This document shows, one piece after another, positions 2,484 through 39,463 of a DNA stretch of 64,000 bases. Under the pieces are notes generated by a model. That model saw only the letters and a list, made by a program, of their open reading frames with translations. It was not told the origin of the DNA and did no database searches. The DNA comes from Myxococcota bacterium (GTDB taxonomy: Bacteria > Myxococcota_A > UBA796 > UBA9615 > JAKLKC01). Both the position numbers and the translations under genes were made by a program. How positions within the stretch are numbered: position 1 is the first letter of the stretch; the number at the start of each line of letters is the position of its first letter. Location of the stretch: the NCBI GenBank assembly GCA_023150875.1, contig JAKLKC010000024.1:9119-73118 (forward strand), read 5' to 3'.

Positions 2484-2741
2484 GCCGCCCGGCTCCCCTG
2501 CGACCGGGGGGCCAGCGTCGGATCGCCGTCGCGCTACCGTCAATCCCGCGTCGCTCCTGGGACCCGGCCGGGGATGGGTGGGCCGGGATCCCGACCTTCG
2601 GTGAGGCCGCCACCGGGCCGGAGGGCGAGCCCCGTCGCGGGGATCCGGTCCTCCGCGCCCCGAATGGCCCCTCCCTCCCCCGGTGGCACGCATCCTGCTC
2701 GGGTGGGGAGCGGCCGAGGACGGCCACCGGAGGCGCCAAGA

Positions 2742-3317
2742 ATGCACTCCATCGGCCCAGCGCCGGCCACCGCCCCCGATCGCACCTGGCACCGGGTGGA
2801 GACGTGGCTCCGCGTCCGCGTCGACCCCGCGCCGCCCCAGGGGGAGGGCGACGCGCCCCGGGAGGCCCTGACCGAGGTCGCCCGGACCTGCTACGGCGTG
2901 CTGGACTCCCTGCGCCACCTGCGGCTGGAGCTCGACTCCGCCGACCGGGTGGTCGCCGAGCGGATCCAGCGGTTCTGCGCCGCGGTGGCCTCGGCCATCG
3001 AGGACCTGGAGGCCCGGGCCGACGGCGAGGGCTTGCCCCCTCCCTCCCCCGGGGACGTCTCCGGCGGGGGCCTCGGGGTCGCCTGCCCCCGCGCCCACGC
3101 CGTGGACGACCGGGTCCGGGTGGCGTTCCGGCTGGAGGAGACCGCAGCGCCCCTGACCTTCCGCGCCGCCGCCCGGGTGGCCTCCTGCCGCCGGGTGGAT
3201 GCGCCCCCCGGGTACCGCCTGGGGCTGGAGTTCGTGGACCTGGACGAGGAGTCGCGGGAGAGGCTGGTGGCGTTGCTCTTCGAGGTCCAGAGGCGGCAAC
3301 GGAGGGCGGAAAGGTGA
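2742..3317 (+). CDS. PilZ-domain protein. Possible c-di-GMP-responsive flagellar brake of the YcgR type.
   Basis: DVSGGGLGV matches the PilZ DxSxGG motif. The C-terminal beta-barrel pattern RVRVAFRLEE...GYRLGLEFVDLDEESRERLVALLFEVQRRQRR is PilZ-like. The upstream RxxxR motif is degenerate (RIQR, RVVAER). The internal ATG at 2742 is favoured over the 2574 extension, which is Pro/Arg-rich. Confidence 0.55.
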   Translation: MHSIGPAPATAPDRTWHRVETWLRVRVDPAPPQGEGDAPREALTEVARTCYGVLDSLRHLRLELDSADRVVAERIQRFCAAVASAIEDLEARADGEGLPPPSPGDVSGGGLGVACPRAHAVDDRVRVAFRLEETAAPLTFRAAARVASCRRVDAPPGYRLGLEFVDLDEESRERLVALLFEVQRRQRRAER

Positions 3318-10384: not shown

Positions 10385-10524
10385 TCGAGGCGCGCGGGCG
10401 GCGGCGACCGGTCCTCGGCCATCGACGTCCTCGTCGTGCACACGCCTGACCGAACCACGCCTCGTCGGTCCCCCGCTCAAGCCAGGCCCGCCCGCGCCGA
10501 TGAGGGGCCGACGAGGGCCTTCCG

Positions 10525-13500: not shown

Positions 13501-13860
13501 GGGCGCTCCGCCATCGAGGCGTCGTTCCGTCCGGCGCTGCTGGCGGTGGCCCGGTGGCTGGGCGCCCACCCCGAGGTGGCCCGCCTGAGGATCGAGGGAC
13601 ACGCCGACCACGTGGGGACCGACGCCTACAACCTGGACCTCTCCCGGAGGCGGGCCTCGGCGGTGCGGGAGTTCCTGGTGCGGGAGGGCCGCGTGGACCC
13701 CCTCCGCCTGGAGGCCCGGGCGTTCGGCGAGGGACGCCCCGCGGCGTCCAACGGCACCGAGGAGGGGAGGGCGGTCAACCGGCGCGTGGAGTTCTTCGCC
13801 TCCGCCCCGCCGCCCGAGCCCGCGCCGACTGCCCACGCCGGGGACGACGGGGGCGGCTGA
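10525..13860 (+). CDS. Secreted Cys-rich repeat protein (MopE-like putative metal-binding motif, about 11 repeats) with a C-terminal OmpA/MotB peptidoglycan-binding domain. 1111 aa.
   Basis: Signal peptide MRVHPVSPAVPGRRSAFRIAVAAASALLAF. The repeat unit DGDGxTTCxGDCDDxxAxxxPGAxExCDGxDxDCDGxVDEGFD recurs. The C-terminus NLDLSRRRASAVREFLVREG...NRRVEF is the OmpA-C signature. Confidence 0.75.
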   Translation: MRVHPVSPAVPGRRSAFRIAVAAASALLAFRGGEAVAVQAYLEDPTAYGDAAAAVPRGIEQAVGFEEPDVSLGQVLTTQYTARGVTFAGSRSLRIVDNVEESWPRGLLAAGIDFGAGTSEIRIAFLVDPQHAVSLYVLDVNQLVVEGWAGGVVVESATVSPGAEDLPSGRFLGLVFDGPVEEVVLRSATVSDGFGIDDLAFAEPGTIDNDGDGQTDAEGDCDDLDAAVDGVDGDGDGVTSCDGDCDDADPSVHSGAVEACDGRDDDCDGQVDEGFDADLDGYTTCAGDCDDTRATVRPGAVETCNDRDDDCDGAVDEGFDADGDGSTTCGGDCDDGQASRHPGAPEACDGVDQDCDGQVDEDFDADGDGHRTCDGDCDDGRADVNPGAAETCDGADQDCDGEVDEGFDGDGDGFAACDDCDDADPAAHPGAAEACDGLDQDCDGLVDEDFDQDGDGATSCDGDCDDTDPWIAPGAYDACGDGVDGDCDGTVDDGRAEECNGLDDDCDGLADEDFDADGDGFTTCEGDCDDASPTTWPGAEELCDGVDQDCDGDVSEEVDGDQDGQAPCGGDCDDATAGIGPGRLEICDGEDQDCDGRVDEGCVDTGELTATYELRGGGCLCAGAGAGATPPPAAALAAALLGLAGARRRRGRAGTRAAGVWGAAALALAPSAAAAGEDEGPDRGLPSERMELPIDGGPFAVGEAAEILEPLEVRAALLVHYSHAPLVSWDAVAEEEREVVAHRVGADLAAGIGLAPFASLGMRLPVTLWQAGTDPDSLESLSGAGIGDLCIAGRFRLLEQGRAPIGLAVGVPLTVPTGNEGGWLGEAGPSFSPQVTVDRRAGRLRVAGTLGARLRAPEQVGTVTLGPELLYRAGLAVDLARGLTVATEVAGAVGGAADNSPLEWLTTLAWTHPRGVEAAAGAGFGVLPGFGTPDVRIYARVAWNVPVGRRPASPRAPVVLEEGAEGAEVAATAVALVKERRLLLADAVRFDVGRSAIEASFRPALLAVARWLGAHPEVARLRIEGHADHVGTDAYNLDLSRRRASAVREFLVREGRVDPLRLEARAFGEGRPAASNGTEEGRAVNRRVEFFASAPPPEPAPTAHAGDDGGG
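11150..12330. repeat. Tandem repeats of about 105 nt, imperfect, encoding the Cys-rich MopE-like motif.
   Basis: GACGGCGAC...TGCGACGACGCC...GAGGCGTGCGAC...GACTGCGACGGC units recur about 11 times at the protein level. Confidence 0.6.
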
Positions 13861-20195: not shown

Positions 20196-21611
20196 TCAGG
20201 GCTGCGCGAAGGCCGCCATGAAGGGCGCGCGCCCCGTCGGGTTGGCGCCGGTGAGGGTGCCCACGCTTCCGCCGAGGTCGAGGTCGTGCTCCATGAAGCC
20301 GGCCAGGACGACGGTGCCGTCGTCCGCCACGGCCATCATCGTGTTGAGGTTGTCGGCGTCCATCGGGTACAGCGCGCTCCAACGGGGGGCGCCGGTGGCC
20401 CCGTCGAAGGACGCGAGGAAGAGGGCGTCGCCCCCGGCGCCGGCGGCGCCGCAGCCGGCGTCGAAGTCCTCGTCGGCCGTCGTGGTGTTGCCGGCGACGT
20501 AGACGTTGCCCAGGGCGTCGAAGGCGACGGCCTGGACCTCGGAGTTCACGTAGCCTCCGAACCGGTGGACCCAGGCGAGGCCGCCTTCGTTGTCGTAGAG
20601 CACGACGTACCAGCCGTCGACCTGCCCGGTGTCGCCGCCGAAGTCGCTGGCCATGTAGCCGGTGCCCGCCATGGCCCAGTACCCCGAGCCGTGGCTCGCG
20701 ACCCGGTCGGCGGCGGGACCCTCGAAGGGGGCGAACATGTCCGGGACGCCGTCGGGATCCAGGCGGACGACGAAGCGGCCGCTCGGCGTGCCGATACCCA
20801 GGTCGACGCCGGACTCGCCCTCGGTGATCACGTAGGTGCCGCAGGCGTCCCCGGCGACGTCGTCGATCTCCTGCGTGGCCTCGTCACCCCACGCCCCGCT
20901 CCAGACGTGGTCGCCCGCGGAGTCGAGGCGAAACGCGGCGAGGTCCTTGCCGCCGCCGTGGGGGAGGGTCCCGCCGCCCAGGTCCACCGCCGCCTCGACG
21001 TAGCCGGCGAGCACCACGCCGCCGTCCCGCTGCACGACCATGCCCAGCTTGGTGAGGTCGTCGTCGTCCACGAGGACGCCGGTGCTCGCCCCCGTGCCGT
21101 CGGCGGCGGACAGGCGCCAGACCTCGTGCTTCACCGCGATCAGGCTCCCCGTATCATCGAAGTCGAGGGCCTCGATCCGCCAGATGTCGTCGCGCCGCCA
21201 CCGCTCGTTCCCCGTCGCCACGTCGACGGCGATGAGCGACTCGGCCCCCACGTAGGCGGTCCCCCCGTCCACGAGCAGAGCGAGGGGCTCCTCGCCCTCC
21301 CACGAGGTCGCCCAAAGCGCGGACGGCGAGCCGGAGCACGCCGCGCCGGCGTCGCCTCCGTGGCCGGTACCGTCGCAGGTGGACGGGGGCTCGGTGGTGT
21401 CGTCGTCGCCGCCGGTGTCGTCGTCGCCGCCGGTGTCGTCGTCGCCGCCGGTGTCGTCGTCGCCGCCGGTGTCGTCGTCGCCGCCGGTGTCGTCGTCGCC
21501 CCCGGCGTCGTCGTCGTCGCCGGTCGGGCCGCAGCCGGCCGGGCCCAGGGGGGAGGAGACGAGGGCGGCGAGGAGGAGGAGGGCGGGGGTAGGCGAGGAC
21601 GTGGAGCTCAT
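20196..21611 (-). CDS. Lipoprotein with an N-terminal acidic (DDDTGG)x6 repeat linker and a beta-propeller-like body.
   Basis: ATG at 21611 with GGAGGA 7 nt upstream. Lipobox LGPAGC. Then GPTGDDDDAGGDDDTGGDDDTGG... follows. No enzyme motif. Confidence 0.6.
   Translation of the reverse strand: MSSTSSPTPALLLLAALVSSPLGPAGCGPTGDDDDAGGDDDTGGDDDTGGDDDTGGDDDTGGDDDTGGDDDTTEPPSTCDGTGHGGDAGAACSGSPSALWATSWEGEEPLALLVDGGTAYVGAESLIAVDVATGNERWRRDDIWRIEALDFDDTGSLIAVKHEVWRLSAADGTGASTGVLVDDDDLTKLGMVVQRDGGVVLAGYVEAAVDLGGGTLPHGGGKDLAAFRLDSAGDHVWSGAWGDEATQEIDDVAGDACGTYVITEGESGVDLGIGTPSGRFVVRLDPDGVPDMFAPFEGPAADRVASHGSGYWAMAGTGYMASDFGGDTGQVDGWYVVLYDNEGGLAWVHRFGGYVNSEVQAVAFDALGNVYVAGNTTTADEDFDAGCGAAGAGGDALFLASFDGATGAPRWSALYPMDADNLNTMMAVADDGTVVLAGFMEHDLDLGGSVGTLTGANPTGRAPFMAAFAQP
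21404..21525. repeat. Perfect 18-nt tandem repeat (GTCGTCGCCGCCGGTGTC)x6, coding for DDDTGG on the minus strand.
   Basis: The repeat is seen directly in the sequence. Confidence 0.9.
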
Positions 21612-21806
21612 GGGGATCCTCCAATTCGTGGTGCGTGGGGGCACCTCCCTTCAGCGAGCAGAGTCTACCGCACGCGAGAGCGACCGTGGAGGTACCCCGT
21701 GGGCTCGGGTATGGTGGTCGTGTGTGACTCCGCACCGCGCGGGCCCGCCGCCGGGCGGGCGCCACCGGCGCCGACCTCGATGTTCCCCCGGCCCCCCTGA
21801 ACCCGC

Positions 21807-24800
21807 ATGGGGTCTTCCCATGCGGCCGAACACGGATCCGTGACGGCTCCGCCCTCGCCCCCCTGGCTCCTTCCGTTCTGCGACGCCCGCCGCGTCCGGC
21901 CCGCCGGGTGGGCGTTCCTGTTCTTGCTATACGGCACGGCCGCGATCCTGAGGATCGCCTGCTGGACCGAGCACCCCGCCGTCGCGGAGACCCTCTTCGT
22001 CGGCTCCGCCGCCGACATGTTCACCCGGGGGGAGGCGAGGTGGCCTTGGGAGCTCACCCAGGAGCCCTACGCCCTCGGGCCCGGGCTGGAGGCGATGGGC
22101 CTCGCCCTGGCGCACCCCCTCCTGGGGGAGAGGCTGCTGGCGGTGCGGGTGCTGGGGGCCCTGGCGGACCTGGTCACCACCGGGGTCGTGGTGGGCGTCT
22201 TCTCCCGCCTCTCCGGGGGGCCGACGGCCCTCCTGGTGGGCCTCGCGCTGGTCCTCGCCCCCGGCGCCGTCGCGGACCATCGCTACTACTGGGGAGTGCC
22301 CCACGCCCGGCAGTGGCTCTACGCGGCCCCCGCGCTGCTGGCCCTGGCCACCCTGCGGGACACCCCCGCCCCGAGGGCGATCCGCCGGTCGGCCCTCGCC
22401 GCCGTCGCGGGGCTGCTCCTGGGGCTCGGGTGCGCCGCGTACCTCCTGTTCGGCCTGGTGGCCCTGGCCTTCGGAGTCCTGGCCGCCTCGGGGTGGCTGG
22501 GGCCGCTCCGGCCGCGGGAGATCGCCGCCGCCGCCGCGGGCTTCGCCCTGGGGCTCTCCCCCCTCGGCCTGGCCCTCGAGGTCTCGGCGGTCCAGGGGGC
22601 GGGCGCGGACCCGGGCCGCTTCGCGGAGCTGGTCCGGTTCCACCTGCTCTCGCCCCAGCGGCTGCTCCTGCCCATCGGCTTCCCCGCCATCACCTTCCCC
22701 CTCCCCTGGGACGTGGGCGCGGGGTCCACCGCCCTCCGGGCCGCCCTGGCCCTGGTGGTCTCCGTCCCCACCCTCGCCTGCGCCGTCCGGGTGGGGAGGT
22801 CCCTCGCCCGGGCGCCGCGCCCCGATCGCGCCTCCCTGCCCCTCGCCGAGGGGGCGGCGGTGGTCCTCATCGCCGTCGTCGCCCTCTTCGGCCTCGGCCC
22901 GGCGACGCCCCCGTTCACGACCCTGCCGGGCACCACGGGCCGGTACGCCGTGGTGCTCTTCCCCGGGGCGGCGCTGCTGGCGGCCCGGGTGGCGCTCGAC
23001 GCCTCCGCGGCCCGCTGGATGCGGGCGGCGCTGCCGCTGGGGCTGGTCTCGGGGCTGGCGGTGCTGGGCATCGACGCCGCGCGGGGGCCGACCCCGGGGG
23101 TCCTGGAGCGCCCCGACGGCTCGGCGATCTGGCTGGCCCGCCACGACCGGCGCGTGGGAGCGAGCGGGGAGGAGGTCGCGGGGCGCCTGCTCGCGCGCGG
23201 GCCCGGGGACCGCTGGGGCTACGCCTTCGGCGCGGGGATCGAGGCGAGCTCGAGCCCCGGGGAGCCGCCGCCTCCCACCGCCGTCATCGCCGAGGATCCG
23301 GGCCTCGCGGACGCCTACGTCGCGGGGATCTGCTTCGGGTGGACCCTCTTCCGGAACGGCGTGGTGGGGGTCGGGGTGGCCCACGCGGTGGCGGTGCCCT
23401 CCCCCGAGCCCCCCTCCCACGCTGACGCCGGGCGGTTCCCGGCCGCCTGCGCCGCGGGCATCGCCGAGTACGTGCGCTACGCCGTCCCCGCCGGGGACCA
23501 GGACGAGGCCGCCGCCGCCGCCGCCGAGGCATTGGGCCCGATGGGCGACGCGCTCCGGGAGGCGTGGCGGAGGATGCCGGCGGAACACCTCTTCGCCCGG
23601 AGGGTGGACGCGGCGGAGCTCCGCGCCCGGGGGCTGGCGGCCGTGGGGGGGCGACCCGCCGGACTCGGGGGGGCCGCGGAGAGCGGGGGTGAGACGACGG
23701 GTTGCGGCCCGCCGTCGGAAGGGGGCGAGGCGAGCCCCGATCCGACGACCCTGGTGGTGGTCCACAGCGTCACGGGCCGGACGGCGCGGGTGGGAGCGGA
23801 GATCGCGGCGATGCTGGGGGCGCCGTGCGTCCGCTACCGCGACGCGCCCCCCCTCCCGGGCTACGCCCCCGGGTCGGGGGGAGCCCTCGCCGAGGTCCTC
23901 CCGACCCTCCGCCTGGATGGGGTGAGGGAACTCTACGTGGGGTTCCCCATCTGGGCGGAGGGGCCGGCTCCCCCCGCCCTCGCCTTCCTGGAGCGCCTGG
24001 ACCTGGCCGGGATCCGGGTCGTGCCCTTCTACACGTTCACCCACTACGCGGCGCCCGGCGCGCTGGCGGCCCTGGCGGACGCGGTGCGCCGAAGGGGGGG
24101 CTCGACCGCCCCGCCGCAGGGGTTCCTGTTCCCCCTGGCCGCCACCGACGACGATGTCGCCGCCGCCGCCCACCGGGCCATCCTGGGGCGCCCCGACCTG
24201 TGGAGCAGGGGGCGTACCGCCCGCGGGCCGGCGCCGTCCCCGGGTTGCGCCCCGGGACCGGAGGCCCACGGCGCGCCCCTGTGCGCGGTCCCCGAGGGGG
24301 ACGCCTGGCTCGGCGACGATGGCTCGCCGGGCAGCCCGAGGGGCTACCCGCCGCCCCGGCGGGTGCGGGTGCCCGCCTTTCGCGTCGACCGCCACGAGGT
24401 GACCATCGCCCAGTACGCGCGGTGCGTGGACGCCGGGGGTTGCCCCCCCGTCGCCCTGGACTCCATGGCGTGCCGCCCCCTCGGGGCCCTGGAGCCGGAG
24501 CTGCCCCTGCCCTGCGCGTCGGAGCGGGACGCCCGGGCCTATTGCGGCTGGGCGGGCCTGCGGCTGCCCACCGAGGCGGAGTGGATCCGGGCCGCCCGGG
24601 GCGAGTCCGCCACCCCGCGGCCGTGGGGGGAGGACCTGGGCGATCCCTCGACGCCGCTCCGCGCCAACCTGGGCGGGAAGGCGGGGACCACCCTGCCCCA
24701 CTACTCCCTGGTGCCCGACGAGCTCCCCTGGCCCGACGACGGCTTCCCCGGACTCGCGCCCCCCTGCGCCTTCCCCGCCGGCGAGAGCCCCTTCGGCGCC

Positions 24801-25022
24801 TGCGACCTGGTGGGGAACCTGGCGGAGTGGGTCGACGGAGCCCCCTCCCCCGGGCCGGGTTGGCTGAAGGGGGGGAGCTGGATGGACGCCGACCCCGCCG
24901 CGCTGCGGATCGGCTCCCGGGCCTCCCTGTCCCGGGACTTCGGCATGTACCTGACGGGGTTCCGGTGTGCGGGGCCGGCGGTGGGCGCTGGCGGGGGACC
25001 TCCGGGAGGGGGCGGCGGGTGA
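21807..25022 (+). CDS. Fusion protein. N-terminal polytopic membrane domain (GT-C/PMT-ArnT-like), a central domain, and a C-terminal FGE-sulfatase (SUMF1/formylglycine-generating-enzyme family) domain. 1071 aa.
   Basis: The first 330 aa contain many TM helices. The C-terminus RVRVPAFRVDRHEVTIAQYARCV...CGWAGLRLPTEAEWIRAARG...GNLAEWVDG...GGSWMDADPAALRIGSRASLSRDFGMYLTGFRCA matches the FGE-sulfatase domain motifs. Confidence 0.7.
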   Translation: MGSSHAAEHGSVTAPPSPPWLLPFCDARRVRPAGWAFLFLLYGTAAILRIACWTEHPAVAETLFVGSAADMFTRGEARWPWELTQEPYALGPGLEAMGLALAHPLLGERLLAVRVLGALADLVTTGVVVGVFSRLSGGPTALLVGLALVLAPGAVADHRYYWGVPHARQWLYAAPALLALATLRDTPAPRAIRRSALAAVAGLLLGLGCAAYLLFGLVALAFGVLAASGWLGPLRPREIAAAAAGFALGLSPLGLALEVSAVQGAGADPGRFAELVRFHLLSPQRLLLPIGFPAITFPLPWDVGAGSTALRAALALVVSVPTLACAVRVGRSLARAPRPDRASLPLAEGAAVVLIAVVALFGLGPATPPFTTLPGTTGRYAVVLFPGAALLAARVALDASAARWMRAALPLGLVSGLAVLGIDAARGPTPGVLERPDGSAIWLARHDRRVGASGEEVAGRLLARGPGDRWGYAFGAGIEASSSPGEPPPPTAVIAEDPGLADAYVAGICFGWTLFRNGVVGVGVAHAVAVPSPEPPSHADAGRFPAACAAGIAEYVRYAVPAGDQDEAAAAAAEALGPMGDALREAWRRMPAEHLFARRVDAAELRARGLAAVGGRPAGLGGAAESGGETTGCGPPSEGGEASPDPTTLVVVHSVTGRTARVGAEIAAMLGAPCVRYRDAPPLPGYAPGSGGALAEVLPTLRLDGVRELYVGFPIWAEGPAPPALAFLERLDLAGIRVVPFYTFTHYAAPGALAALADAVRRRGGSTAPPQGFLFPLAATDDDVAAAAHRAILGRPDLWSRGRTARGPAPSPGCAPGPEAHGAPLCAVPEGDAWLGDDGSPGSPRGYPPPRRVRVPAFRVDRHEVTIAQYARCVDAGGCPPVALDSMACRPLGALEPELPLPCASERDARAYCGWAGLRLPTEAEWIRAARGESATPRPWGEDLGDPSTPLRANLGGKAGTTLPHYSLVPDELPWPDDGFPGLAPPCAFPAGESPFGACDLVGNLAEWVDGAPSPGPGWLKGGSWMDADPAALRIGSRASLSRDFGMYLTGFRCAGPAVGAGGGPPGGGGG

Positions 25023-26785
25023 CCGCCCGGATCCGCAGGGGGGCGCATCGCGCGGCCGCCCCGGGAGCCCCGGGGACGCGGACCGATCCGGGTGGCGCGG
25101 CGCGGCCGCCCCCCGCGGGGCCCGCCCCGGGGAACGCACCCTCGGGGACCCTGCTGGGCCGCGGACTCGCCATCCTCGTCGTGGCGGCCTGGATCTGGCT
25201 CTCGATGACCCAGGTGCCCGCCCTGCGGGCCTGGGAGAGCACCCGGTCCTGGGGGTGGACGGCCTTGGGCCTCCTCTGGCGCACCGCCACGGGCGAGCCG
25301 GTGGTCGTCCATTCCGATCTCCCCCTCGGAGTGCTCGCCGCCGCGGAGGCCGCGGTGATCGCCGCGATCCTCTTCGCGGCCGCCGTGGCGCGGGAGGCGT
25401 CCCCCGCGTGGCGACTCGCGTGCCTGGTCACCTGGGCGCAGATCTTCCCGTATCTCCCCGCGATCCTCGAGCTGTCGGGCCTCTGGCTCGCCCTGCCCGC
25501 GGCCGGGGCCATTCCCATGCTGGTGGCGGCGAAGGGACGGCGCCCCCTCGGGCCGGCGGCGATGGTCCTGGTGGAACTCGGCTGGGTTCCCGCGTTCTTC
25601 CCCTTGGCGCTCTTCACCGGAGTCATCCTCCACGTCGCGCCGCGGGTGGTGCTGGTGGGCCTGCCGGGGTGCATGGCCCTCGCCGCGGCCGTGGCGTGGG
25701 GCACCCCCCGCTGGTTGGGGATCCGCCGGCCATGGCCCAGCCTCCGCCCCGCCGTGTCGGTCCTCGTCAGCGGGTTCGCGTGGGCCTACGTGGGCGGCTC
25801 GCGCCTGGGCGCCTGGCACGAGGCGACGGAGGCCGGCCCGCGCTGCCAGGAGGTGAGACGGGGGCAACCCGGGCTGAGATGGTACGACACGCCCCCCGGC
25901 CCCCCGCTGTGGTCGGCGGTCCCGGTCCCGGGCGGAGCGCTGGCCGTGGGGGACGGGTTCGCCGTCCTCGCTCAGGACGCCGGCGGTCCGCCGGAGAGGG
26001 TCGAGATCCCGGGCTGCACCCATCCGGAGTACCTCGCCCCGGCCCGCCCCTCGGGCTTCTGGACGGTGTGCGCGATGCGCCGCGCCGTCCGCCTCGAGTC
26101 CTCCCCGCTTCGGGTCGTCGAGGACCTGGAGCTCCCTGGCCCCGTCGCCGAGACGCGGGGGGTGGTGGATTGGGGACGGCACGGGTTGCTGGTGTCGACC
26201 ACCGGGGTGTCCGCCCTGCTCGCCCGCGACCGTGCCCACACCTGGCCCTGGAGGCAGGGGGTCGCCAACATCCCCGTGGACCTCGGCGAGCGCCTGGCCC
26301 TGCTCACCTTCCGCAACGTCATCGAGCTGGACGCCTCCCTGGGGGCCCGGAGGAACGCCACGGTCCCGACCGCGATGTTCACCAACGCCGCCCCCGCCGG
26401 CGGCGCGGCGGGGCTCTGGATCGGGGACGCGGCGCGCCAGGGACTCCACCGGTTCTCGACGGAGGCGTGGCGCGTGGAGGGCTTCGTCCCCCTGGGCTTC
26501 CCGCCCCGCCACGTCGTGTCCGACGACGCCGGCCGCGCCGCCGCCGTGGACCACATGAGCGGCGCGATGGCGCTGGTGGACCCGGAGCGCGGAGTGTATG
26601 CCCGCGCCGACGTCGGCCCCCGGGCGCGGAACCTCGCGTGGGCGGGGGACGGGAGCCGGATCGTGGGGGTGTCGTCGTGTGGCGTCTACGCGATCCACCC
26701 GCCGGCCACCGCCGGCCCCGGTGGCCGGGGGCACGCGCCCTCACCCGAGGAAGCGTCGCTCCCCGATGGTCCGCAGCATCCGTAG
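25019..26785 (+). CDS. Membrane protein with a C-terminal beta-rich (propeller-like) domain. Unknown function.
   Basis: GTG overlaps the upstream stop (GTGA). Several TM helices (ILVVAAWIWLSM, VIAAILFAAAVA, LWLALPAAGAIPMLVAA...). The start is uncertain. Confidence 0.45.
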   Translation: MTARIRRGAHRAAAPGAPGTRTDPGGAARPPPAGPAPGNAPSGTLLGRGLAILVVAAWIWLSMTQVPALRAWESTRSWGWTALGLLWRTATGEPVVVHSDLPLGVLAAAEAAVIAAILFAAAVAREASPAWRLACLVTWAQIFPYLPAILELSGLWLALPAAGAIPMLVAAKGRRPLGPAAMVLVELGWVPAFFPLALFTGVILHVAPRVVLVGLPGCMALAAAVAWGTPRWLGIRRPWPSLRPAVSVLVSGFAWAYVGGSRLGAWHEATEAGPRCQEVRRGQPGLRWYDTPPGPPLWSAVPVPGGALAVGDGFAVLAQDAGGPPERVEIPGCTHPEYLAPARPSGFWTVCAMRRAVRLESSPLRVVEDLELPGPVAETRGVVDWGRHGLLVSTTGVSALLARDRAHTWPWRQGVANIPVDLGERLALLTFRNVIELDASLGARRNATVPTAMFTNAAPAGGAAGLWIGDAARQGLHRFSTEAWRVEGFVPLGFPPRHVVSDDAGRAAAVDHMSGAMALVDPERGVYARADVGPRARNLAWAGDGSRIVGVSSCGVYAIHPPATAGPGGRGHAPSPEEASLPDGPQHP

Positions 26786-28276
26786 GGCGGTGCGGGCGAG
26801 GTGGCCGTAGCCCGCCGAGTGCTTGGAGCGCCCCCCGATCCGCGGAGCGTAGTGGACCGGCACCTCCGCCAGGCGGTGCCGCGCCCTCAGGACCTCGATC
26901 ATCATCTCGGGCGAGAACTCCGGGCCCACGCCCCGGACGCGGCCCCGGACCTCCAGCCAGACGTCCCGCCAGAGGGCCCGGTACGTGCAGCCCACGTCCG
27001 TCAGGCGCGTCCCGCTCCCCTCGCGCCGCCACAGCGCCCCCAGGAGCCCGGCGACGGCCACGTTCGCCCACCGTTGGGGCGGGTCCATGCGGGCGCCTTC
27101 CTCGATCATCGGGGGCGCGGTCCTGGTGCCCACCACCATGTCGGCGTCCTTGAGGGCCTCGAGGAGGCGTCCGAGGTCACGGGCCCGGAAGGTCCCGTCC
27201 GCCTCGGTGACGATCAAGACCTCCCCGCCGGCGTGATCGAGGCCGTGGGCGATGGCCGCGCCGTAGCCGCCCGGACTCCGGGTGAGGACCCGGGCCCCTG
27301 CCGCCTCGGCCTCCCGCGCCGTCGCGTCGCGGCTCCCGCCGTCCACCACCAGCACCTCGTCCACCCACGGGCGGAACTCCCGCACCACGAAGGCGACGCT
27401 GTCCGCCTCCTCGTAGGCAGGAATGACCAGCGAGCGCCGGCAGGTCGGGAAGGAGGCGGTCCTCACCACCGACCTCGCGGCGCGCAGGTCCTCGATCCGG
27501 TTCACGTTGACGTACTCCCCCCGCAGCTCGAAGGGCAGGACCGTCCCGCCGTCCCTTGCCAGGCGGTCCAGGGCGTCGGTGAGCTCCCGCCTGCCCGTCC
27601 GCCGGGACGGCGGCGTCCGGCGGAGGGCGTCGAAGACGGCGGGGCCGATCAGGTAGGTTCCGGTGCCCATCCACGGGCCGTCCACCCGCTCGGGGCGCTC
27701 CTCCAGCCCCACCAGGGCTCCGTCCCGCGGGGTGACGGAGCAGGTGCGGGCGATCACCCGCGGATCGGGCTCGCGCCGCACCCCCACCACGGCGTCGGCG
27801 CGCCGGGAGGCGGCCAGGGCCGGCAGCTCGGCGTGGTTGGACCCGTGGTAGACTTCGTCGCCCAGGAGGAGCACGAAGGGCGTGGGCACCTCCCCCTCCA
27901 CCCGGGCGATGCCGTCGCCCAGGCCCTTCTCGGGCGAGGGGTTGTGAAGGTATCGGACCCGGACCCCGAAGCGCTCCCCGTCCCCGAGCCAGCGTCGCAC
28001 CGCCTCGCCGAGGCGGCCGACGAGCACCACCACCTCCTCGATCCCGAGGTCTTCCCTCGCCATGCGGACCAGGCGCCCGAGGATGGGCTCGCCCGCGATG
28101 GGAAGGAGGCACTTCGGAGTGGTGGCGGTGAGCGGGAGGAGCCGCGTGCCGTGTCCCGCTGCGGCGATCACCGCGGTCCGTGGGGATCCGGGGCTTCCCA
28201 CGATTCGAAGGGGCCTCCTGTGCCGCCGGCCGCGCGCCGGGCGGGCAGGATAGCCCAGGTCCCCGGCGAGAGCCAT
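26741..28276 (-). CDS. Bifunctional sugar-phosphate nucleotidyltransferase / family-2 glycosyltransferase fusion.
   Basis: The N-terminus AVIAAAGHGTRLLPLTATTPKCLLPIAGEPIL is the NTP-transferase G-x-G-T-R motif. The C-terminus SLVIPAYEEADSV...VVDGGSRDATAREAE...VTEADGTF is GT2/DPM-synthase-like. Start ATG at 28276; the alternative is 28339. Confidence 0.75.
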   Translation of the reverse strand: MALAGDLGYPARPARGRRHRRPLRIVGSPGSPRTAVIAAAGHGTRLLPLTATTPKCLLPIAGEPILGRLVRMAREDLGIEEVVVLVGRLGEAVRRWLGDGERFGVRVRYLHNPSPEKGLGDGIARVEGEVPTPFVLLLGDEVYHGSNHAELPALAASRRADAVVGVRREPDPRVIARTCSVTPRDGALVGLEERPERVDGPWMGTGTYLIGPAVFDALRRTPPSRRTGRRELTDALDRLARDGGTVLPFELRGEYVNVNRIEDLRAARSVVRTASFPTCRRSLVIPAYEEADSVAFVVREFRPWVDEVLVVDGGSRDATAREAEAAGARVLTRSPGGYGAAIAHGLDHAGGEVLIVTEADGTFRARDLGRLLEALKDADMVVGTRTAPPMIEEGARMDPPQRWANVAVAGLLGALWRREGSGTRLTDVGCTYRALWRDVWLEVRGRVRGVGPEFSPEMMIEVLRARHRLAEVPVHYAPRIGGRSKHSAGYGHLARTALRMLRTIGERRFLG

Positions 28277-30327
28277 GGCGACCGGGGCGGAGGCGCTCGG
28301 ACGTGACCCCCTCCGCCCGCCCGTCCAAGGCCGCCCCACCGCGTTCCGCGCCCGACGGGCCTGCCCCGTGGCCCTGGGTGCTCGTGGTGGAGGCGGTGGT
28401 GGTGGGCGCCGTGCTGTCGAGCCGCACCAGTCCCGTGGGCAAGCTGCTGATGCTGGTCCTCTTCCACGCTCCCTGGCTCGGCTGGCCGATCTGGGTGGCG
28501 GCGGCGCGGAGGGTGGGGCTGTCGGCGAGGGCCACGGGCGCGGCGGTGCTCCTCCAAGGACTGGCGGCAGTGGCCGCGGCGCTCCTGGTCAGCGGCGTCC
28601 TTGCCTGCCTGCTGCGCTGGCCCGCCCCGGAGTCGGGGGCGCGGGCGACCCTGGCCCTGCTGCACCTGCTGGCCGGGCTCACCCTCGCGCTGCCCCTGGC
28701 CCTGTACCTGGGCCCCCACGTACGGGCGACGTGGACCCCGGGCCGCCTCCTCCACGTCGTGGCCGGGGGGACGGCGGCCGTCGCGGCGCTGCTGTGCGTC
28801 GCCACGGGCATGCTCCTGGTGGACGCGCTGCCCGCCCGGGTCGCCCCCTCGCCGGAGCACGCCGCCCTGGCGCGATCCCTCTGGCGCTTCCCCCGGGCGC
28901 CCCTCCTCGTGGTCCACGTCGCCGCGTCGGCGGCGGCCGTCTCCGTGGCCGCCGCCCACGTCGTCCGGGCGGTCCGCACGGGTCGCCGCTTCCCCGCCCT
29001 CGCCGCCGCCCCCCTCCGCCTCTTCGGATCGGGGCCCCGCGCCGGGGCCGCCGCGGGGATCGCCCTGGCCCTCGCGGCGGTGGCCTGGGGTGCCTCCCTG
29101 GACGCCGCCCCGCCACCCCCCGCCACCCCCCGCTCCGGCGGCCCGCTCCCGGCCGCCCTCGCCCGCCCCGCCGAGGGCTGCGCCTTCGCTGGGGGGTGCC
29201 ACGCCGTGGCGGTGGAGCAGTGGAGGACCTCCCCCCACGCCCGCTCTGGCGTCTCCCCCTTCCTGGAGGACGCCCGCTCCCTGCGGGTGGCCGAGGCGGG
29301 GACCGAGGGCGGACGCACCTGCCACACCTGCCACGCCCCCCTGGCGCGCCTGGGGCCGGCCCCGGAGGGGGTCGCCGATCCCCGGGTGGCCCGGGGCGTG
29401 GACTGCCTCGGCTGCCACTCCCTGCACCCCGGCCCGGAGGCCGCCGACGGCGACTACGCCCTGGCGCCTCCGCGGCCCTACCCCTTCGAGGGCTCCCCGG
29501 AGGAGGGGCTCCGGGCGACCCTGCGGTACCTGGCCGTGGCGGTGGCCCCGGAGCGCCACGCCGCGGACCTCGGGGGGCCGAGGCTCCGGGAGGCGGCCCT
29601 GTGCGCCTCGTGCCACCAGCAGCACACCGGGATCGACGGCGCGGTGCGGGGCCAGGACGCGCCCGCCTCCCTGGCGGCGGGCCCCGGGGCGGGGGCCGGC
29701 TGTGTCGGTTGCCACATGCCCGTCGTGGAGACCCGGGACCTGCTGGCGGTGGACGGCAGGATGCACCACCACGGGCTGGTGGCGGCGGAGCCGGACCTGG
29801 GTGCCTTGCTCCAGGGGGGGCAGGATGCGGAGCCGGGGATGCTGCCCGGGCGCGCCCGGCTGAGCTGGGCGGGGGAGGGCCCCGGGGCCGCCGGGTCCCG
29901 GGAGCTGCACTTCGAGGTGGAGGCGACGGGCACGGGGCACGCCTTCCCCGGCGGGACCCTGGACCAGGCCCGGCTGGACCTGGTGGTCCGGGACGCCCGG
30001 GGCGCCGAGGTGGGCCGGTCCCGGGTCGCCGGGGTCCGCCTCGTGGACGCCTCGGGCGCCCCCCTCCTCCGTCACCAGACCTGGCGCGCCGCCCGGGCGA
30101 TCCCCACCGGCGCCGCCCCGGAAGGCCCCCTCCTCCCCGCCCGCCCGGTGCGGGTGCGCGTGGCCGTGCCCGCCTCGTCCTCGCCCCAGACGGCGACCCT
30201 CCTCTACTCCGCTCGCCCCGCGGCCCTCTGGACGGCGGTGGTGGGGGAGGGGGCCCCCGCGGAGGTGGAGGTCGCGTCCGTGGCCGTGCCTCCCGCGGCA
30301 CCGTCGCCCGCGTCACCGGGGGGGTGA
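28180..30327 (+). CDS. Membrane-anchored multiheme c-type cytochrome (4 CxxCH).
   Basis: Heme-binding motifs CHTCH, CLGCH, CASCH, CVGCH. Several N-terminal TM helices. The start is uncertain; the real start is likely an internal codon between 28300 and 28450. The 3' end overlaps a convergent gene. Confidence 0.5.
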   Translation: MGIRGFPRFEGASCAAGRAPGGQDSPGPRREPWRPGRRRSDVTPSARPSKAAPPRSAPDGPAPWPWVLVVEAVVVGAVLSSRTSPVGKLLMLVLFHAPWLGWPIWVAAARRVGLSARATGAAVLLQGLAAVAAALLVSGVLACLLRWPAPESGARATLALLHLLAGLTLALPLALYLGPHVRATWTPGRLLHVVAGGTAAVAALLCVATGMLLVDALPARVAPSPEHAALARSLWRFPRAPLLVVHVAASAAAVSVAAAHVVRAVRTGRRFPALAAAPLRLFGSGPRAGAAAGIALALAAVAWGASLDAAPPPPATPRSGGPLPAALARPAEGCAFAGGCHAVAVEQWRTSPHARSGVSPFLEDARSLRVAEAGTEGGRTCHTCHAPLARLGPAPEGVADPRVARGVDCLGCHSLHPGPEAADGDYALAPPRPYPFEGSPEEGLRATLRYLAVAVAPERHAADLGGPRLREAALCASCHQQHTGIDGAVRGQDAPASLAAGPGAGAGCVGCHMPVVETRDLLAVDGRMHHHGLVAAEPDLGALLQGGQDAEPGMLPGRARLSWAGEGPGAAGSRELHFEVEATGTGHAFPGGTLDQARLDLVVRDARGAEVGRSRVAGVRLVDASGAPLLRHQTWRAARAIPTGAAPEGPLLPARPVRVRVAVPASSSPQTATLLYSARPAALWTAVVGEGAPAEVEVASVAVPPAAPSPASPGG

Positions 30328-32069
30328 GGCGGGATCGGCACGCCCCCCTCCACCCGGTAGACTTCGTAACCGCCGCGGCCGCCGGGCTCGGGGAAGCGGC
30401 GCTCCAGGACCAGCGAGAGTCCCTCTCCGTCGACCAGGTCGGTGAAGCGGGTGAACCACGGGTCCGGGCCGTCCGCGACGGGGGCCAGCAGGTCGGTCTG
30501 GACCTTGCGGACGTACAGGGCCTCGGGATCGGCGAAGGTGGGGCGGAAGTAAGCGTCCCGGTCCAGCTCCCGCACCGAGAAGTCGGCGCCGTAGGGGTTG
30601 CGGACCCGGACCCGGCCCTCGGTGTAGTACAGGGCGTTGAAGTAGGGCTGGGGCTGGAGGGCGTGGGGGCGGTGGTGGCCCCCGGCGTCCAGCCAGTGGG
30701 CCAGCGCGTACGACGTGTCGCTCATCAGCCGCGGGCCCCCCGTCCGGGCAAGGGCCGCCGCCCACGCCAGGTCGAAGCGGGCCGCCAGCGCCAGCCAGAG
30801 ACCGATGGACGCCACCGCCAGGGCCCGGCCGGTGCTCCGACGGCCCACATGCAGGGCCGCCGCGGCGATGGCCAGGTGTGGGAAGGGGTAGACCATCGCC
30901 ATGTGATGGGGGCCCAGGGAGGAGAGGGTGAAGGGGGTGCAGGCCCAGATCGCCGCCATCGCCCCCAGGACCGCCGCCGCCCGCCGCCGGTCCAGGCGAT
31001 CCGGCCGGGGCTCCCCCTCGCCGGCCTGCCCCGGGGTGGGGCGCGGCCCCAGGGCCACCGCCCCCAGCACCACGCACGCCGCGACGAACAGGGGAAGCCC
31101 CAGGGGGTTCCCCGGCAGCTCCAGCCCCGTGAAGATCCGCAGGAACGGGGCGAAGTCGAACAGCGAGACGGCCTGGGCGGTCCGCGTCCCCAGGTTCTCG
31201 GCCAAGGAGAGGGTGTCCACGCCGACATCGGTGCGGCCCAGGTTCCGTCGGACGAACTCGAAAGTACCCGCAGTGAGCAGGTTGTAGGCCAGGATCGGCC
31301 ATCCCCCGAGGGCCAGGCCCGCCCCCAGGGCGCTCCACCCCCGCCGCCCCCAACGCCGCCATCGCCCCGTCGCCGCCAGGCAGGCGCCCACCCCCAGCAG
31401 CGCCCAGGCGAAGATCAGGGAGTTGGTCAGGCCCAGCCCCAGCAGGGATCCCGCGGCCAGCAGCGCCGCCCGGGAGCCCGACGCGCGCTCCCGCTCGAAG
31501 GCCACCAGGGCCAGGAGGGCCATGGTCTGGAGGCGGAAGGGGATGGGGAGGGCCCGGGTCAGCACCTGGGTCATGGGGTCCACCGCCAGCAGGAGCGCGG
31601 CCAGGGCGGCGGTGCGGGGGCCCAGCCAGGACCGGGCGAAGGCGTAGGCCGCGGCGGCGTACACGCAGAGGTTCAGCAGCGAGAAGACCTTGAGGGCGAG
31701 GGGGGAGGCCGGCAGGGCCCCCACCGCCGCCCCCAGGACCATCACGTCCACCGCGTACTCCCGCAGGAAGACCATGAAGGGGTGGTAGGTGAGGACCCGG
31801 ACGCGGTCGCCGGAACGGAGCACCAGGATCCGGTCGGGGCCGACCCGCTCCAGGACGTGCCCGCCGGGGAGGTCCAGGACCGGGACCCCCTCCTCGCCCG
31901 GGTGGAGGTGCTCCAGGACGTCGCGGCCGGGGGCCAGGGCGTTCCAGACGACCTCGCCGTGGTACTCGCTCACCCCGCCGTGGGGCAGGGCGGGCAGGTG
32001 GGCCGCCGCCAGGGCCAGGGCCGCCACGAGGGAACCGAGGGCCGCGCTCCCCCTCCTCGCCCCCGTCAC
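30204..32069 (-). CDS. Polytopic membrane protein, GT-C fold glycosyltransferase-like (PMT_2/ArnT family-like).
   Basis: About 10 predicted TM helices in the N-terminal 400 aa are followed by a soluble C-domain. This architecture is typical of GT39/GT83-type enzymes. Family assignment is an inference. Confidence 0.5.
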   Translation of the reverse strand: MTGARRGSAALGSLVAALALAAAHLPALPHGGVSEYHGEVVWNALAPGRDVLEHLHPGEEGVPVLDLPGGHVLERVGPDRILVLRSGDRVRVLTYHPFMVFLREYAVDVMVLGAAVGALPASPLALKVFSLLNLCVYAAAAYAFARSWLGPRTAALAALLLAVDPMTQVLTRALPIPFRLQTMALLALVAFERERASGSRAALLAAGSLLGLGLTNSLIFAWALLGVGACLAATGRWRRWGRRGWSALGAGLALGGWPILAYNLLTAGTFEFVRRNLGRTDVGVDTLSLAENLGTRTAQAVSLFDFAPFLRIFTGLELPGNPLGLPLFVAACVVLGAVALGPRPTPGQAGEGEPRPDRLDRRRAAAVLGAMAAIWACTPFTLSSLGPHHMAMVYPFPHLAIAAAALHVGRRSTGRALAVASIGLWLALAARFDLAWAAALARTGGPRLMSDTSYALAHWLDAGGHHRPHALQPQPYFNALYYTEGRVRVRNPYGADFSVRELDRDAYFRPTFADPEALYVRKVQTDLLAPVADGPDPWFTRFTDLVDGEGLSLVLERRFPEPGGRGGYEVYRVEGGVPIPPHPPGDAGDGAAGGTATDATSTSAGAPSPTTAVQRAAGRAE

Positions 32070-32103: not shown

Positions 32104-33597
32104 TCACGCCGGGGCCGGGTCGCGGCCGAGGGAGCGGCGGATCCGGGGCCGGAGGTGGCCGTTCCAGATCGCGCTGCGGTAGCCGTCCAGCAGCGCCGCG
32201 CCCCCCTTGAGCAGCCGGCGCCTCGGGATCAGGTCCCCCCCCAGGTAGCGGGCGATGGTGCGGGGGCGCAGGTAGAACTCCATCATGCCCCGGCGCTGGA
32301 GGCGCACCAGCTCCGAGGCGGGGAGGCTCGCCCCCGACAGCAGGTGCTCGGTGTCGTTGAGGGTGGGATCGAACCAGCCCGAGTACTTCCAGGTGGGCTG
32401 GCCGGCCAGGCGATCGCGGTGCTCCTCCCACAGCGCCGTGCCGGGGTAGGGGACGCAGATGTTGAACTTGGCCATGTCGCAGTCCACGGCGCGGGCGAAG
32501 CGGATGGTGCGCTCCACCTGCTCGCGGGTCTCGCCGGGCATGCCGATCACGAACAGCCCGAAGGTGAGGATCCCCGCCTCGCGGCACCAGCGCACGGCGT
32601 CCAGGGCCTGCCGCGCCGCCGCCTTCTTCTGCATCAGGCCCAGCACCTCGTCGTCCCCGGACTCGATGCCGAGCTGCACGAAGCGGAGCCCCACCGAGTA
32701 CGCCTCCTTCAGCAGCTCCGGGTCCACCAGGTCCACCCGGGTCTCGGTGAACCAGGTGACCTTCTCGTGCAGGCCGCGGGCGCGCATCTCCGTCGCCAGG
32801 GCGTCGAGCTGCTTGCGACCGAACGGGAAGATCGCGTCGATGAAGCCGAAGACCCGGACCCCCCAGGTTCGGTGCGCCCAGTCCATCTCCTCCACCACCC
32901 GGCGCATGTCCCGCTTGCGGAGCTTCGGGTAGATGATGTCCTGGGAGCAGAACGAGCAGGCGTATGGGCACCCGCGGGAGGCCTGGATGGTGAACGCCTT
33001 GCCCTCCAGCACCCGGAAGCCCAGGGGCTCCGCCTGGTAGCTCTCGTCCACCAGCAGGTCCCAGGCCGGGAAGGGGAGCTGGTCCAGGTCCTCCAGGACG
33101 GGGCGGTCGGGGGCGTGGGCGATCCGGTCCCCGTCCCGGAACGTCAGGCCGGGGATCCCGTGCAGATCGCGGCCCTCCCGTAGGGCCCGGCACAGGTCGA
33201 GCGTCGCCAGCTCGCCTTCTCCCCGCACCACCGTGTCCGCCACCCCCGCGGCGACCAGCTCCCGGGCGAAGTAGGTGGCGTGGGCGTTTCCCAGGACCAC
33301 GTGGGCTCCGGGGAGCCGGGCCCGGAGCATCCCCACCGCGTCCTCGACGCTCTCCATGGCGAAGGTCAGGCACGAGAACCCGACCACGTCGGGCCTCCAC
33401 GCCTCCACCTCCGCGAGGAGCCGCTCGTTGTCCCAGCGGCGGGCGTACTGGTCGACGATCCCCACCTCGAACCCGTCCTGCCGGAGCACGCTGGCGATGT
33501 AGGCGAGCCCGGTGGGCGGGACCGCCACGGCGTACTTCCAGACCGTGCCGATCCGGCGCTGGGCGAGGGAGTTGGGGTTGACGAGCAGGACGCGCAT
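32104..33597 (-). CDS. B12-binding domain radical SAM enzyme.
   Basis: MRVLLVNPN...[17 protein letters not shown] is the N-terminal cobalamin-binding Rossmann region. [13 protein letters not shown] is the CxxxCxxC radical SAM cluster motif. Confidence 0.85.
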
Positions 33598-33666
33598 GAG
33601 GCTCCGCGCGGGCTCCCGCGGTGAGGGCGGCAGCGAGTATAGCCGAATGCCCCCGCTCCCCCGCGG

Positions 33667-39241: not shown

Positions 39242-39463
39242 CCTCTCCGAGGGCTCCCGTGGCCGGCAGGCTACCCGCGGTCCCCCGGTCCTTCAAGCCA
39301 CCCGGCCGGTCCTCCGGTCCTCCCTCGTCCTTGACACGCCCGGGAGGGCGGTGCTAGCAGGAGCGTGGGCGTCACCCCTCCGAGCGGTCCACGAGGCCGC
39401 CGGTCCTCCCCGAGTGGGGCGGCGGGGCGCGGGTGCGCCGCTGGGACGACGGGAGGGAGGGAG

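Follow-up and report, generated by a model that had tools for sequence, protein, structure and literature searches.

A 64,000-nucleotide stretch of DNA from a Myxococcota bacterium (GenBank assembly GCA_023150875.1, contig JAKLKC010000024.1, positions 9,119 to 73,118 of the forward strand), referred to here as the window, contains at 21807-25022 a gene for a protein of 1071 amino acids (aa). The protein consists of three domains in two evolutionary units, namely an orphan N-terminal membrane protein and a recurrent periplasmic module in which a flavodoxin-like domain is followed by a domain with the fold of formylglycine-generating enzyme (FGE). The features of the gene are listed below with the evidence for each. 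Alignment A1 represents the N-terminal domain family and contains three sequences only, profile A2 represents twenty-seven members of the module family, P0003 is the relative of the N-terminal unit described below, and GT-C denotes the glycosyltransferases that include PMT_2 and ArnT. Further abbreviations are TM (transmembrane helix), AF2 (AlphaFold2), pLDDT and pTM (its predicted local distance difference test and predicted template modelling scores) and dN/dS (ratio of nonsynonymous to synonymous substitution rates).

21807-25022, +: whole gene, three-part envelope protein of 1071 aa (uninterrupted ATG-to-TGA open reading frame)
21894-23084, +: polytopic membrane region, aa 30-426, modelled with 11 TM, N-terminus inside and C-terminus outside (hydropathy of the protein and of the family alignment)
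21963-22127, +: first periplasmic loop, aa 53-107, acidic, the best-conserved part of the N-domain family (alignment A1 with P0003)
22047-22646, +: segment of aa ~81-280, TM2-TM7, aligning in register with the PMT_2 region of GT-C neighbours (hhalign)
23094-23651, +: periplasmic all-helical domain, aa 430-615 (alignment A1; AF2 model of helices only, pLDDT 50-76; dN/dS 0.37)
23652-23741, +: fusion junction and linker, aa 616-645, rich in Gly, Pro and Glu (P0003 ends at ~615, the module family starts at ~640)
23742-24206, +: flavodoxin-like domain of the Flavodoxin_4 type, aa 646-800 (profile A2 against PDB flavodoxins, AF2, motifs)
24288-24974, +: domain of the FGE-sulfatase fold, aa 828-1056, of the Cys-less pFGE/PvdO type (Pfam, PDB phmmer, Foldseek)
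24870-24905, +: equivalent of the FGE active-site loop, 'GGSWMDADPAAL' for 'GGSYMCHRSYCY' (HMMER alignments to human FGE and SUMF2)

The window has a G+C content of about 75% and long open reading frames therefore occur in every frame of it. Across 21807-25022 the G+C content at the third codon position is 0.92-1.00 in the frame of the gene, and the frame switches directly outside on both sides. An ortholog from an independent assembly (Logan SRR32236739; locus L001) has 91% nucleotide and 89% amino acid identity to the protein, and it comprises exactly 1071 codons with zero indels and is followed by the same two genes. An earlier reading of this DNA, made from the sequence alone, had considered that the gene might be two open reading frames separated by a frameshift. 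Such a frameshift or assembly artefact is excluded by the single coding frame and the intact ortholog. Comparison of the two orthologs gave a dN/dS of 0.36 overall, and no segment reaches 1: the value is 0.11 in the FGE-like domain, 0.34 in the membrane region, 0.37 in the periplasmic helical domain, 0.63 in the flavodoxin-like domain and 0.66 in the linker. With one coding frame, an intact ortholog and dN/dS below 1 throughout, the fusion gene is therefore genuine and kept by selection. The NCBI entry is named 'formylglycine-generating enzyme family protein [Myxococcota bacterium]' and has its start placed at the GTG at 21840.

The full fusion is extremely rare and confined to one lineage: in 5.8 billion clusters and 1.84 billion representatives, the protein itself and the one 89%-identical ortholog were the only examples. 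The 1.84 billion representatives were searched exhaustively by phmmer with aa 1-820; a word-indexed homolog search returned self-hits only for the full protein, the A1 profile and the protein L006_595, for which Ala/Leu-rich words probably saturate the list of 8000 candidates. No paper describing a GT-C-FGE or flavodoxin-FGE architecture was found in the searchable literature, in line with the earlier remark that no described example was known. The overall architecture is new, and all three domains come from, or probably from, known superfamilies. The fusion of a polytopic membrane domain to an FGE-sulfatase domain that the sequence-only reading had recognised is thus real and its FGE fold is confirmed, whereas the flavodoxin-like domain (aa 646-800) lying between the two had been overlooked.

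The flavodoxin-like and FGE-like module

A Pfam search with the full protein gave only the C-terminal FGE-sulfatase domain above threshold (PF03781: aa 828-1055, 95.8 bits, E = 4.5e-27), with Flavodoxin_4 found below it. In a phmmer search of the PDB, the FGE-like domain matched FGE (E = 1.8e-16) and SUMF2 (E = 9.7e-16), with PorK chains also among the matches, and the inactive paralog SUMF2 was the best end-to-end sequence match. Foldseek comparison of a model of the module recovered human FGE, pFGE, PvdO, CalU17 and EgtB at E-values of 1e-15 to 1e-10, with a TM-score of about 0.69 to human FGE, pFGE and PvdO (E ~ 1e-13).

Two active-site cysteines bind the catalytic copper of FGE (bioRxiv 10.1101/2021.05.21.445229). 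Both are replaced in this protein, where C336 of human FGE corresponds to D1027 and C341 to A1032, and the domain is therefore not a formylglycine-generating enzyme. The same holds for the family, since none of the thirty-eight members aligned has a cysteine at either copper-ligand column, and Asp or Glu occupies the first column in thirty-two of them. With the catalytic Cys pair replaced, the suggested role of a SUMF1-type FGE in periplasmic Cys oxidation is not supported; no sulfatase gene was found among the approximately fifty window genes scanned, a client elsewhere in the genome being possible. Ten other Cys columns are conserved among the thirty-eight sequences and, together with the leaders of the unfused homologs, they indicate an oxidising extracytoplasmic location. 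Besides its low dN/dS of 0.11, the domain has many invariant polar residues, and a hypervariable region of the type made by diversity-generating retroelements (DGR) is absent. Judged from its residues, the domain is pFGE/PvdO-like and not an FGE.

The closest known counterparts are pFGE/SUMF2 and PvdO, which have the same fold and also lack the copper-binding cysteines. The loop 'GGSWMD...' of the present domain resembles 'GASWID...' of SUMF2, the compartment is likewise secretory or periplasmic, and the disulfide-type Cys pairs at 'AYC.W' and 'FRCA' are conserved. However, pFGE and PvdO are single-domain soluble proteins, whereas the domain described here is rigidly joined to a flavodoxin-like domain and, uniquely, to an 11-TM protein. 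EgtB, OvoA and SenA, which gave the top Foldseek matches and the partial NCBIfam matches, also combine two domains, of which the N-terminal one carries the cofactor and packs against an FGE-like C-terminal domain with residues for substrate binding. Unlike these cytoplasmic enzymes, the present protein has no DinB domain or His triad, and the partner domain is flavodoxin-like and periplasmic. Membership in the EgtB/SenA families was rejected, as the scores are far below the family values (SenA, 47.5 vs 420 bits; EgtB, 31.4 vs 360 bits), cover only ~40-50 aa of the FGE domain and come with no DinB domain. Assignment to the PorK/GldK ring lipoproteins of the type IX secretion system (T9SS) was also rejected (25.9 vs 350 bits in NCBIfam), and no T9SS genes were seen in the window.

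The flavodoxin-like domain carries the phosphate loop 'HSVTGRT' and the motifs 'GFPIW' and 'VVPFYT'. When taken alone it scores 14.6 bits against Pfam Flavodoxin_4, for which the threshold is 24, and its NCBIfam match is weak. Profile A2 matched the PDB flavodoxins 4j8p (E = 5e-14), 3klb (6e-12) and 4ici (7.5e-12) in alignments that span the phosphate loop for flavin mononucleotide (FMN), 'GFPIW' and 'PF.T'. In the alignment of thirty-eight family sequences S654, G657, T659, GFPxW and PFxT are near-invariant, and AF2 predicts a five-stranded beta-alpha-beta pattern with pLDDT > 90. By homology the domain is thus identified as flavodoxin-like, as it has the phosphate loop 'S.TG.T', 'GFPIW', 'PF.T' and the alpha/beta fold in common with Flavodoxin_4 (PF12682; 4j8p, 3klb, 4ici). 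Unlike Flavodoxin_4, domains of this type are exported and always followed by an FGE-like domain, their sequence past 'PFYT' differs, and FMN binding is a prediction from the motifs. The whole module was modelled with a pLDDT of 90.8 and a pTM of 0.90, and the two domains are therefore predicted to pack as one rigid body.

The module is a recurrent secreted or lipoprotein unit of ~450 aa, recognised here as a family. Approximately one hundred proteins among the representatives matched aa ~640-815, and the best ~40 of them are proteins of 380-520 aa in which a signal peptide or lipobox is followed by the flavodoxin-like domain and then by the FGE-sulfatase domain. An RR pair was found in only seven of the twenty-seven leaders, so export is mostly of the Sec or lipoprotein type, and twin-arginine (Tat) export of a pre-folded flavoprotein is unsupported as a general feature. 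A second fusion was found in P0005 (L005 2761-4998, 745 aa), which consists of an NAD-dependent sugar epimerase/dehydratase, one TM, the flavodoxin-like domain and the FGE-like domain; here the cytoplasmic epimerase domain and the single helix replace the lipid anchor.

The N-terminal membrane unit

The N-terminal unit comprises approximately 615 aa, with about eleven TM (aa 30-426) followed by the periplasmic helical domain (aa 430-615), and not ~330 aa as had been estimated. Its sole relative among the 1.84 billion representatives is P0003, which covers aa 45-614 with 41% identity (E = 1e-81). P0003 is a stand-alone protein of 583 aa that stops exactly at the start of the Gly/Pro-rich linker, and the unit is thus kept whole in it. 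Its called TTG start (L002 7055-7196) cuts into TM1, and the in-frame sequence upstream encodes the missing half of TM1 and contains no in-frame ATG, GTG or TTG. The start of P0003 is either a non-canonical codon or affected by a sequence error in the metagenome-assembled genome.

The eleven-TM model, in which the protein starts on the cytoplasmic side and ends in the periplasm, fits the positive-inside rule, as every Arg-rich loop is cytoplasmic. It places the acidic first loop (aa 53-107) and everything past aa 426 in the periplasm, which agrees with the export of the unfused modules. The soluble parts of the protein therefore face the periplasm, as judged from this topology, the signal peptides of the unfused homologs and the conserved Cys pairs. 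Conserved positions in the first loop are W53, H56, P57, E61, R74, G75, E76, Q85-E86-P87-Y88 and E95, after which 'LLGERLLAVRV' follows. The linker is the least conserved segment between the orthologs (67% identity, dN/dS 0.66). It contains 'TTGCG' (C633), which resembles the lipobox 'GTGCG' of P0004; the leader regions do not align, and the resemblance is only suggestive of a relic of an ancestral lipoprotein lipobox.

The sequence-only reading had taken the N-domain to be GT-C-like. Its predicted topology is of that kind: the N-terminus lies inside, the TM count is odd, the first periplasmic loop is large and conserved, and the C-terminal part forms a periplasmic domain. By eye, the opening '...VAETLFVGSAADMFTRGE...QEPYALG...LLGERLLAVRVLGAL' resembles those of GT-C proteins such as the one at 36265-37932 ('SDEGAW...LFGESVLVVRVF') and L010_704 ('VSDDSY...LVFGERIGLRLN'), and the loop of aa 53-107 resembles the first external loop (EL1) and the 'hPPL..fG.s..a.R' opening pattern of both. 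The acidic residue E61 is invariant ('VAET'/'EAEE'), as are E76, E86 and E95, among only three sequences.

Comparison of A1 by hhalign with the PMT_2-like protein at 30204-32069 of the window (win_30204m) gave a score of 36.7 and a probability of 25% (Q93-254/T106-260), and comparison with L006_595 gave 30.9 and 7% (Q81-280/T100-296). Controls remained lower, with eight unrelated polytopic proteins at <=21.4, five reversed sequences at <=19.4 and sixty shuffles at 16.4 +/- 2.6 with a maximum of 22.0. PMT_2 proteins of these loci that were verified by Pfam score 15-23 with one another, and the match to win_30204m is the top of twenty-one pairs. By this measure the N-domain resembles PMT_2 proteins no less than true members resemble one another, in a test of low power. 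These shallow in-register alignments above the controls would fit that part of the earlier claim. Pfam, NCBIfam and PDB profile searches gave no match, and we regard a GT-C fold as only somewhat more probable than not.

The PMT_2/ArnT proteins (PF13231, GT39/GT83-like) share with the present protein an odd number of about eleven TM, the inside N-terminus, an acidic first loop followed by a helix of the 'LLGERLLAVRV' type and a C-terminal periplasmic domain, besides the weak in-register similarity. As with them, the gene lies among glycan genes and near PMT_2-like genes. To our knowledge no GT-C protein carries flavodoxin-like or FGE-like periplasmic domains; the known ones carry MIR, TPR or alpha/beta domains.

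Gene neighbourhoods of the fusion and of the unfused module

The genes of the window that bear on the fusion are as follows.

25019-26785, +: 588-aa orphan with ~6 TM and a soluble C-terminal part of ~350 aa (TM scan)
26741-28339, -: convergent NTP-transferase-GT2 fusion gene (Pfam; in L001 also syntenic beside the fusion gene and the 588-aa gene)
28180-30327, +: membrane-anchored multihaem c554-type cytochrome, 715 aa, ~5 N-terminal TM (Pfam; ortholog in L001)
30204-32069, -: PMT_2-like (GT-C) membrane protein, best hhalign partner of the N-domain (PMT_2, 24.8-25.1 bits vs a gathering threshold of 26.1)
32104-33666 (-), 39335-40912 (+), 50492-52186 (+): three B12-binding radical-SAM (S-adenosylmethionine) genes
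36265-37932, +: GT-C-motif membrane protein with motif resemblance only and no match to a hidden Markov model (HMM)

The GTG start of the 588-aa orphan overlaps the TGA stop of the fusion gene ('GGGTGA'), which indicates translational coupling. Neither Pfam nor the PDB yielded a match to the orphan, whose ortholog at the same position in L001 is 89% identical. Past the cytochrome, the gene order is PMT_2-like, B12-radical-SAM and DUF3604, followed by a classical glycan locus with B12-radical-SAM, WecG, Bac_transf, Wzx, epimerase/dehydratase and DegT genes. Together with the NTP-transferase-GT2 gene, these bear out the earlier description of a glycan-biosynthesis region. The two neighbours that had been named as PMT/ArnT-type proteins fared differently, since that at 30204-32069 lies just under the PMT_2 threshold and that at 36265-37932 shows the motif resemblance only. 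The N-domain had no BLASTP match to any of three membrane proteins encoded nearby.

The cytochrome is two genes away from the fusion gene. On an unrelated contig, a homolog of 666 aa with the same architecture (L091 2500-4500, -; BLASTP E = 1e-7) lies directly beside an unfused module, which may point to a periplasmic electron-transfer link.

The unfused module was found at ten further independent loci, a sample too small for statistics. A genome scan with the flavodoxin-domain alignment gave mostly generic Flavodoxin_4 proteins, with only L008-L010 being true module loci. Three of the ten other lineages have a GT-C neighbour of the module. At L006/L007, PMT_2 genes above the Pfam threshold (28.0 and 27.2 bits) flank the module and the downstream gene overlaps the module stop. 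At L089, a PMT_2 gene that also reaches the Pfam threshold (33.6 bits) follows the module. At L010, a GT-C-patterned protein with at least ten TM is encoded about 100 bp upstream of the module on the same strand, an arrangement that loss of a stop codon would fuse. This adjacency in three lineages, in addition to the fusion, would hardly be expected by chance as GT-C genes are few per genome, and the functional link to GT-C transferases that had been suggested thereby gains support.

Genes for oxidative enzymes were also found near the module. Oxygenases dependent on 2-oxoglutarate (2OG) and Fe, or their relatives, occur at L006, L088, L090 and L091; at L091 the oxygenase stop overlaps the module start, and the oxygenases of L090 and L091 are 49% identical. 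In this small sample, radical-SAM genes likewise recur near both the module and the N-domain family. The genes at these other loci are the following.

L010 7573-9687, +: 704-aa protein (L010_704) with at least ten TM and a textbook GT-C opening ('VSDDSY...SLVFGERIGLRLN'), not recognised by Pfam, which may represent an unmodelled GT-C family
L090 1628-2572; L091 211-1164; L088 2164-4524; L006 12085-12933 and 14789-15634: 2OG-Fe(II) oxygenase-type genes (2OG-FeII_Oxy, PhyH, WelO5), that of L088 being PhyH and the two of L006 WelO5
L006 15656-16975; L008 11217-13070 and 13153-15336: radical-SAM genes near the module, both of those in L008 directly after it
L002 10649-11701: radical-SAM gene beside P0003

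Several further genes were noted in the window. Two large secreted proteins are encoded at 33667-36285 (-; 872 aa, partial DUF3604 match only) and at 52443-55934 (+; ~1070-1160 aa, no Pfam match). A divergent lipoprotein-like gene at 20196-21644 (-) has about six tandem 'GGDDDT' repeats in its N-terminal part, followed by beta-propeller (SBBP) repeats. A protein of ~1100 aa at 10504-13860 (+) combines eight MopE-type putative copper-binding repeats with a C-terminal OmpA domain, and MopE repeats occur together with FG-GAP repeats in the protein at 55935-57881 (+). The flagellar cap protein FliD (175-1704, +) and a PilZ-domain protein (2484-3317, +) are also encoded; flagellar genes are unusual for Myxococcota.

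Possible functions of the fusion

The explanation that we tentatively favour is that the fusion is a membrane transferase of the GT-C type, or of GT-C topology, joined to its usual lipoprotein partner. Two genes would have been fused, one for a protein of about eleven TM with a helical periplasmic domain and the other for a periplasmic lipoprotein, and the stand-alone P0003, which ends at the linker, supports such an event. The membrane parent would belong to an orphan family that most probably represents far-diverged GT-C transferases of the PMT_2 type or at least shares their topology, and the partner would be the rigid module of a flavodoxin-like domain and a Cys-less FGE-like domain, the latter of C-type-lectin fold. 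By analogy, the Cys-less domain, which is unable to make formylglycine, would be the ligand- or acceptor-binding part. Such domains act elsewhere as binding modules and are typically C-terminal to varied partners (PMC7159879), and in EgtB the FGE-like domain forms a composite site with its N-terminal partner domain (bioRxiv 10.1101/2021.05.21.445229). FMN, or a different phosphorylated ligand, may be bound by the flavodoxin-like domain where the two domains meet, and the membrane domain may perform, or serve to anchor, a step of lipid-linked transfer during the synthesis of envelope glycoconjugates. In this account a GT-C fold for the N-domain, a binding function for the FGE-like domain, and the nature of any cofactor and of the substrate are inferences.

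A number of observations weigh against this explanation. Neither the N-domain (aa 1-640) nor P0003 matched any Pfam family at E <= 10, the N-domain had no NCBIfam match, and the A1 profile matched nothing in the PDB at E <= 10, so that in lacking any HMM match the N-domain differs from PMT_2/ArnT. It also differs from them at the usual EL1 'DE/DxD' motif, where Ala takes the place of Asp both here ('VAET') and in P0003. The hhalign probabilities reached 7-25% only and two of the four PMT_2 proteins gave nothing. The AF2 model of aa 1-640, made from the three-sequence alignment, had a pLDDT of 40 and was unusable, and the Foldseek results obtained with it were noise and were discarded. P0003 follows an ISC operon for Fe-S clusters and lies beside genes for a Rieske-like protein, UbiA and a radical-SAM enzyme; its locus has neither glycan genes nor a module. 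Seven of the ten other module lineages have no GT-C neighbour and instead have 2OG oxygenases, radical-SAM genes or a cytochrome, hinting at redox chemistry. A binding model leaves the need for a flavodoxin-like domain with intact FMN motifs unexplained, and the mostly Sec or lipoprotein leaders give no indication of how a flavin would be loaded.

Several of these points are taken up by an alternative that we consider rather unlikely, in which the protein is a periplasmic redox enzyme on a membrane anchor. The module would be a new flavin- or metal-dependent oxidoreductase with its active site at the domain interface, as in the DinB-FGE sulfoxide synthases. The N-domain would be no glycosyltransferase but an anchor or an electron or quinone conduit, with electrons coming from the neighbouring multihaem cytochrome. 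The almost invariant FMN-binding motifs of the thirty-eight family members, the rigid domain packing predicted at a pTM of 0.90 and the acidic residue at the C336 position in thirty-two of the thirty-eight speak for this alternative. The coupling of module genes to 2OG-Fe oxygenases (L090, L091, L088 and L006), the radical-SAM genes near the module (one in L006, two in L008 and three in the window), the c554-type cytochrome in two lineages and the location of P0003 amid Fe-S, Rieske-like, UbiA and radical-SAM genes point in the same direction. PvdO offers a precedent, being a periplasmic protein of the FGE-like type that lacks the cysteines and on which an oxidation step depends (bioRxiv 10.1101/2021.05.21.445229). 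On the other hand, the module is exported, whereas the 2OG oxygenases and radical-SAM enzymes work in the cytoplasm. An RR pair in seven of twenty-seven leaders means that Tat export of a folded, flavin-loaded protein is not the rule, and in the fusion the module follows eleven TM and has to be translocated in an unfolded state. Of the domains, the flavodoxin-like one is under the weakest constraint (dN/dS 0.63), no residue can be pointed to as catalytic, and the repeated adjacency to PMT_2 genes is left unexplained.

An extended proposal would make the module a periplasmic enzyme class that has so far gone unrecognised, with a flavin or another phosphate-bearing cofactor in place of the copper of FGE or the iron of EgtB at a composite active site of the two domains. 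It would be an obligate partner of GT-C-type membrane transferases, and envelope proteins, lipids or glycans would receive a modification by oxidative tailoring. We consider this improbable; if it were true, the fusion in the window would be the 'Rosetta stone' that revealed the partnership.

Similarly doubtful is the explanation that the fusion is a non-enzymatic envelope protein, with the membrane domain and the module having structural or sensory roles and the lectin-fold domain binding a cell-surface or foreign ligand. Parallels would be PorK/GldK, DGR variable proteins and Tsi3 immunity proteins, and the fusion would be a single shuffling event, specific to its lineage, among the numerous FGE-domain paralogs that Myxococcota possess. 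The occurrence of the fusion in a single lineage, the weak NCBIfam similarity to PorK/GldK with PorK chains among the PDB matches, and P0005, which joins the same module to a different partner, an epimerase, are consistent with it. FGE-like domains are known to pair with many N-terminal partners and act as binders (PMC7159879), and also to serve as immunity proteins (bioRxiv 10.1101/2021.05.21.445229). However, the strong constraint on the FGE-like domain, its invariant polar residues and its lack of a DGR-type hypervariable region do not fit this explanation, the conserved phosphate loop argues for a bound small molecule, and the neighbouring genes are biosynthetic rather than parts of secretion or conflict systems.

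Finally, a true SUMF1-type FGE, tethered to the membrane and oxidising a Cys of a periplasmic client, agrees with the Pfam match and the fold but can hardly be right, since the canonical mechanism with copper and a Cys pair is refuted by the loss of both cysteines here (D1027, A1032) and in all thirty-eight relatives, the best end-to-end match is the inactive SUMF2, and the window genes scanned include no sulfatase.

Domains of the FGE-sulfatase fold are abundant in Myxococcota and other bacteria, and most of them are misleadingly annotated as 'formylglycine-generating enzyme family protein'. The present case reveals among them a sub-family of secreted proteins, conserved and made up of a flavodoxin-like and a Cys-less FGE-like domain, whose members cannot be FGE, and the fusion and the operon neighbours tie this sub-family to GT-C-type polytopic proteins and to oxidative tailoring enzymes. 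Of wider use than the single fusion is the recognition of the module family and of its link to GT-C membrane proteins. Should that link have no functional basis, the fusion would amount to a domain shuffle within one lineage and be of modest interest. If it is functional, the module would be an undescribed accessory subunit, for acceptor recognition or redox, in bacterial periplasmic reactions of the glycosylation type, and it would offer a testable handle on the orphan 11-TM family.

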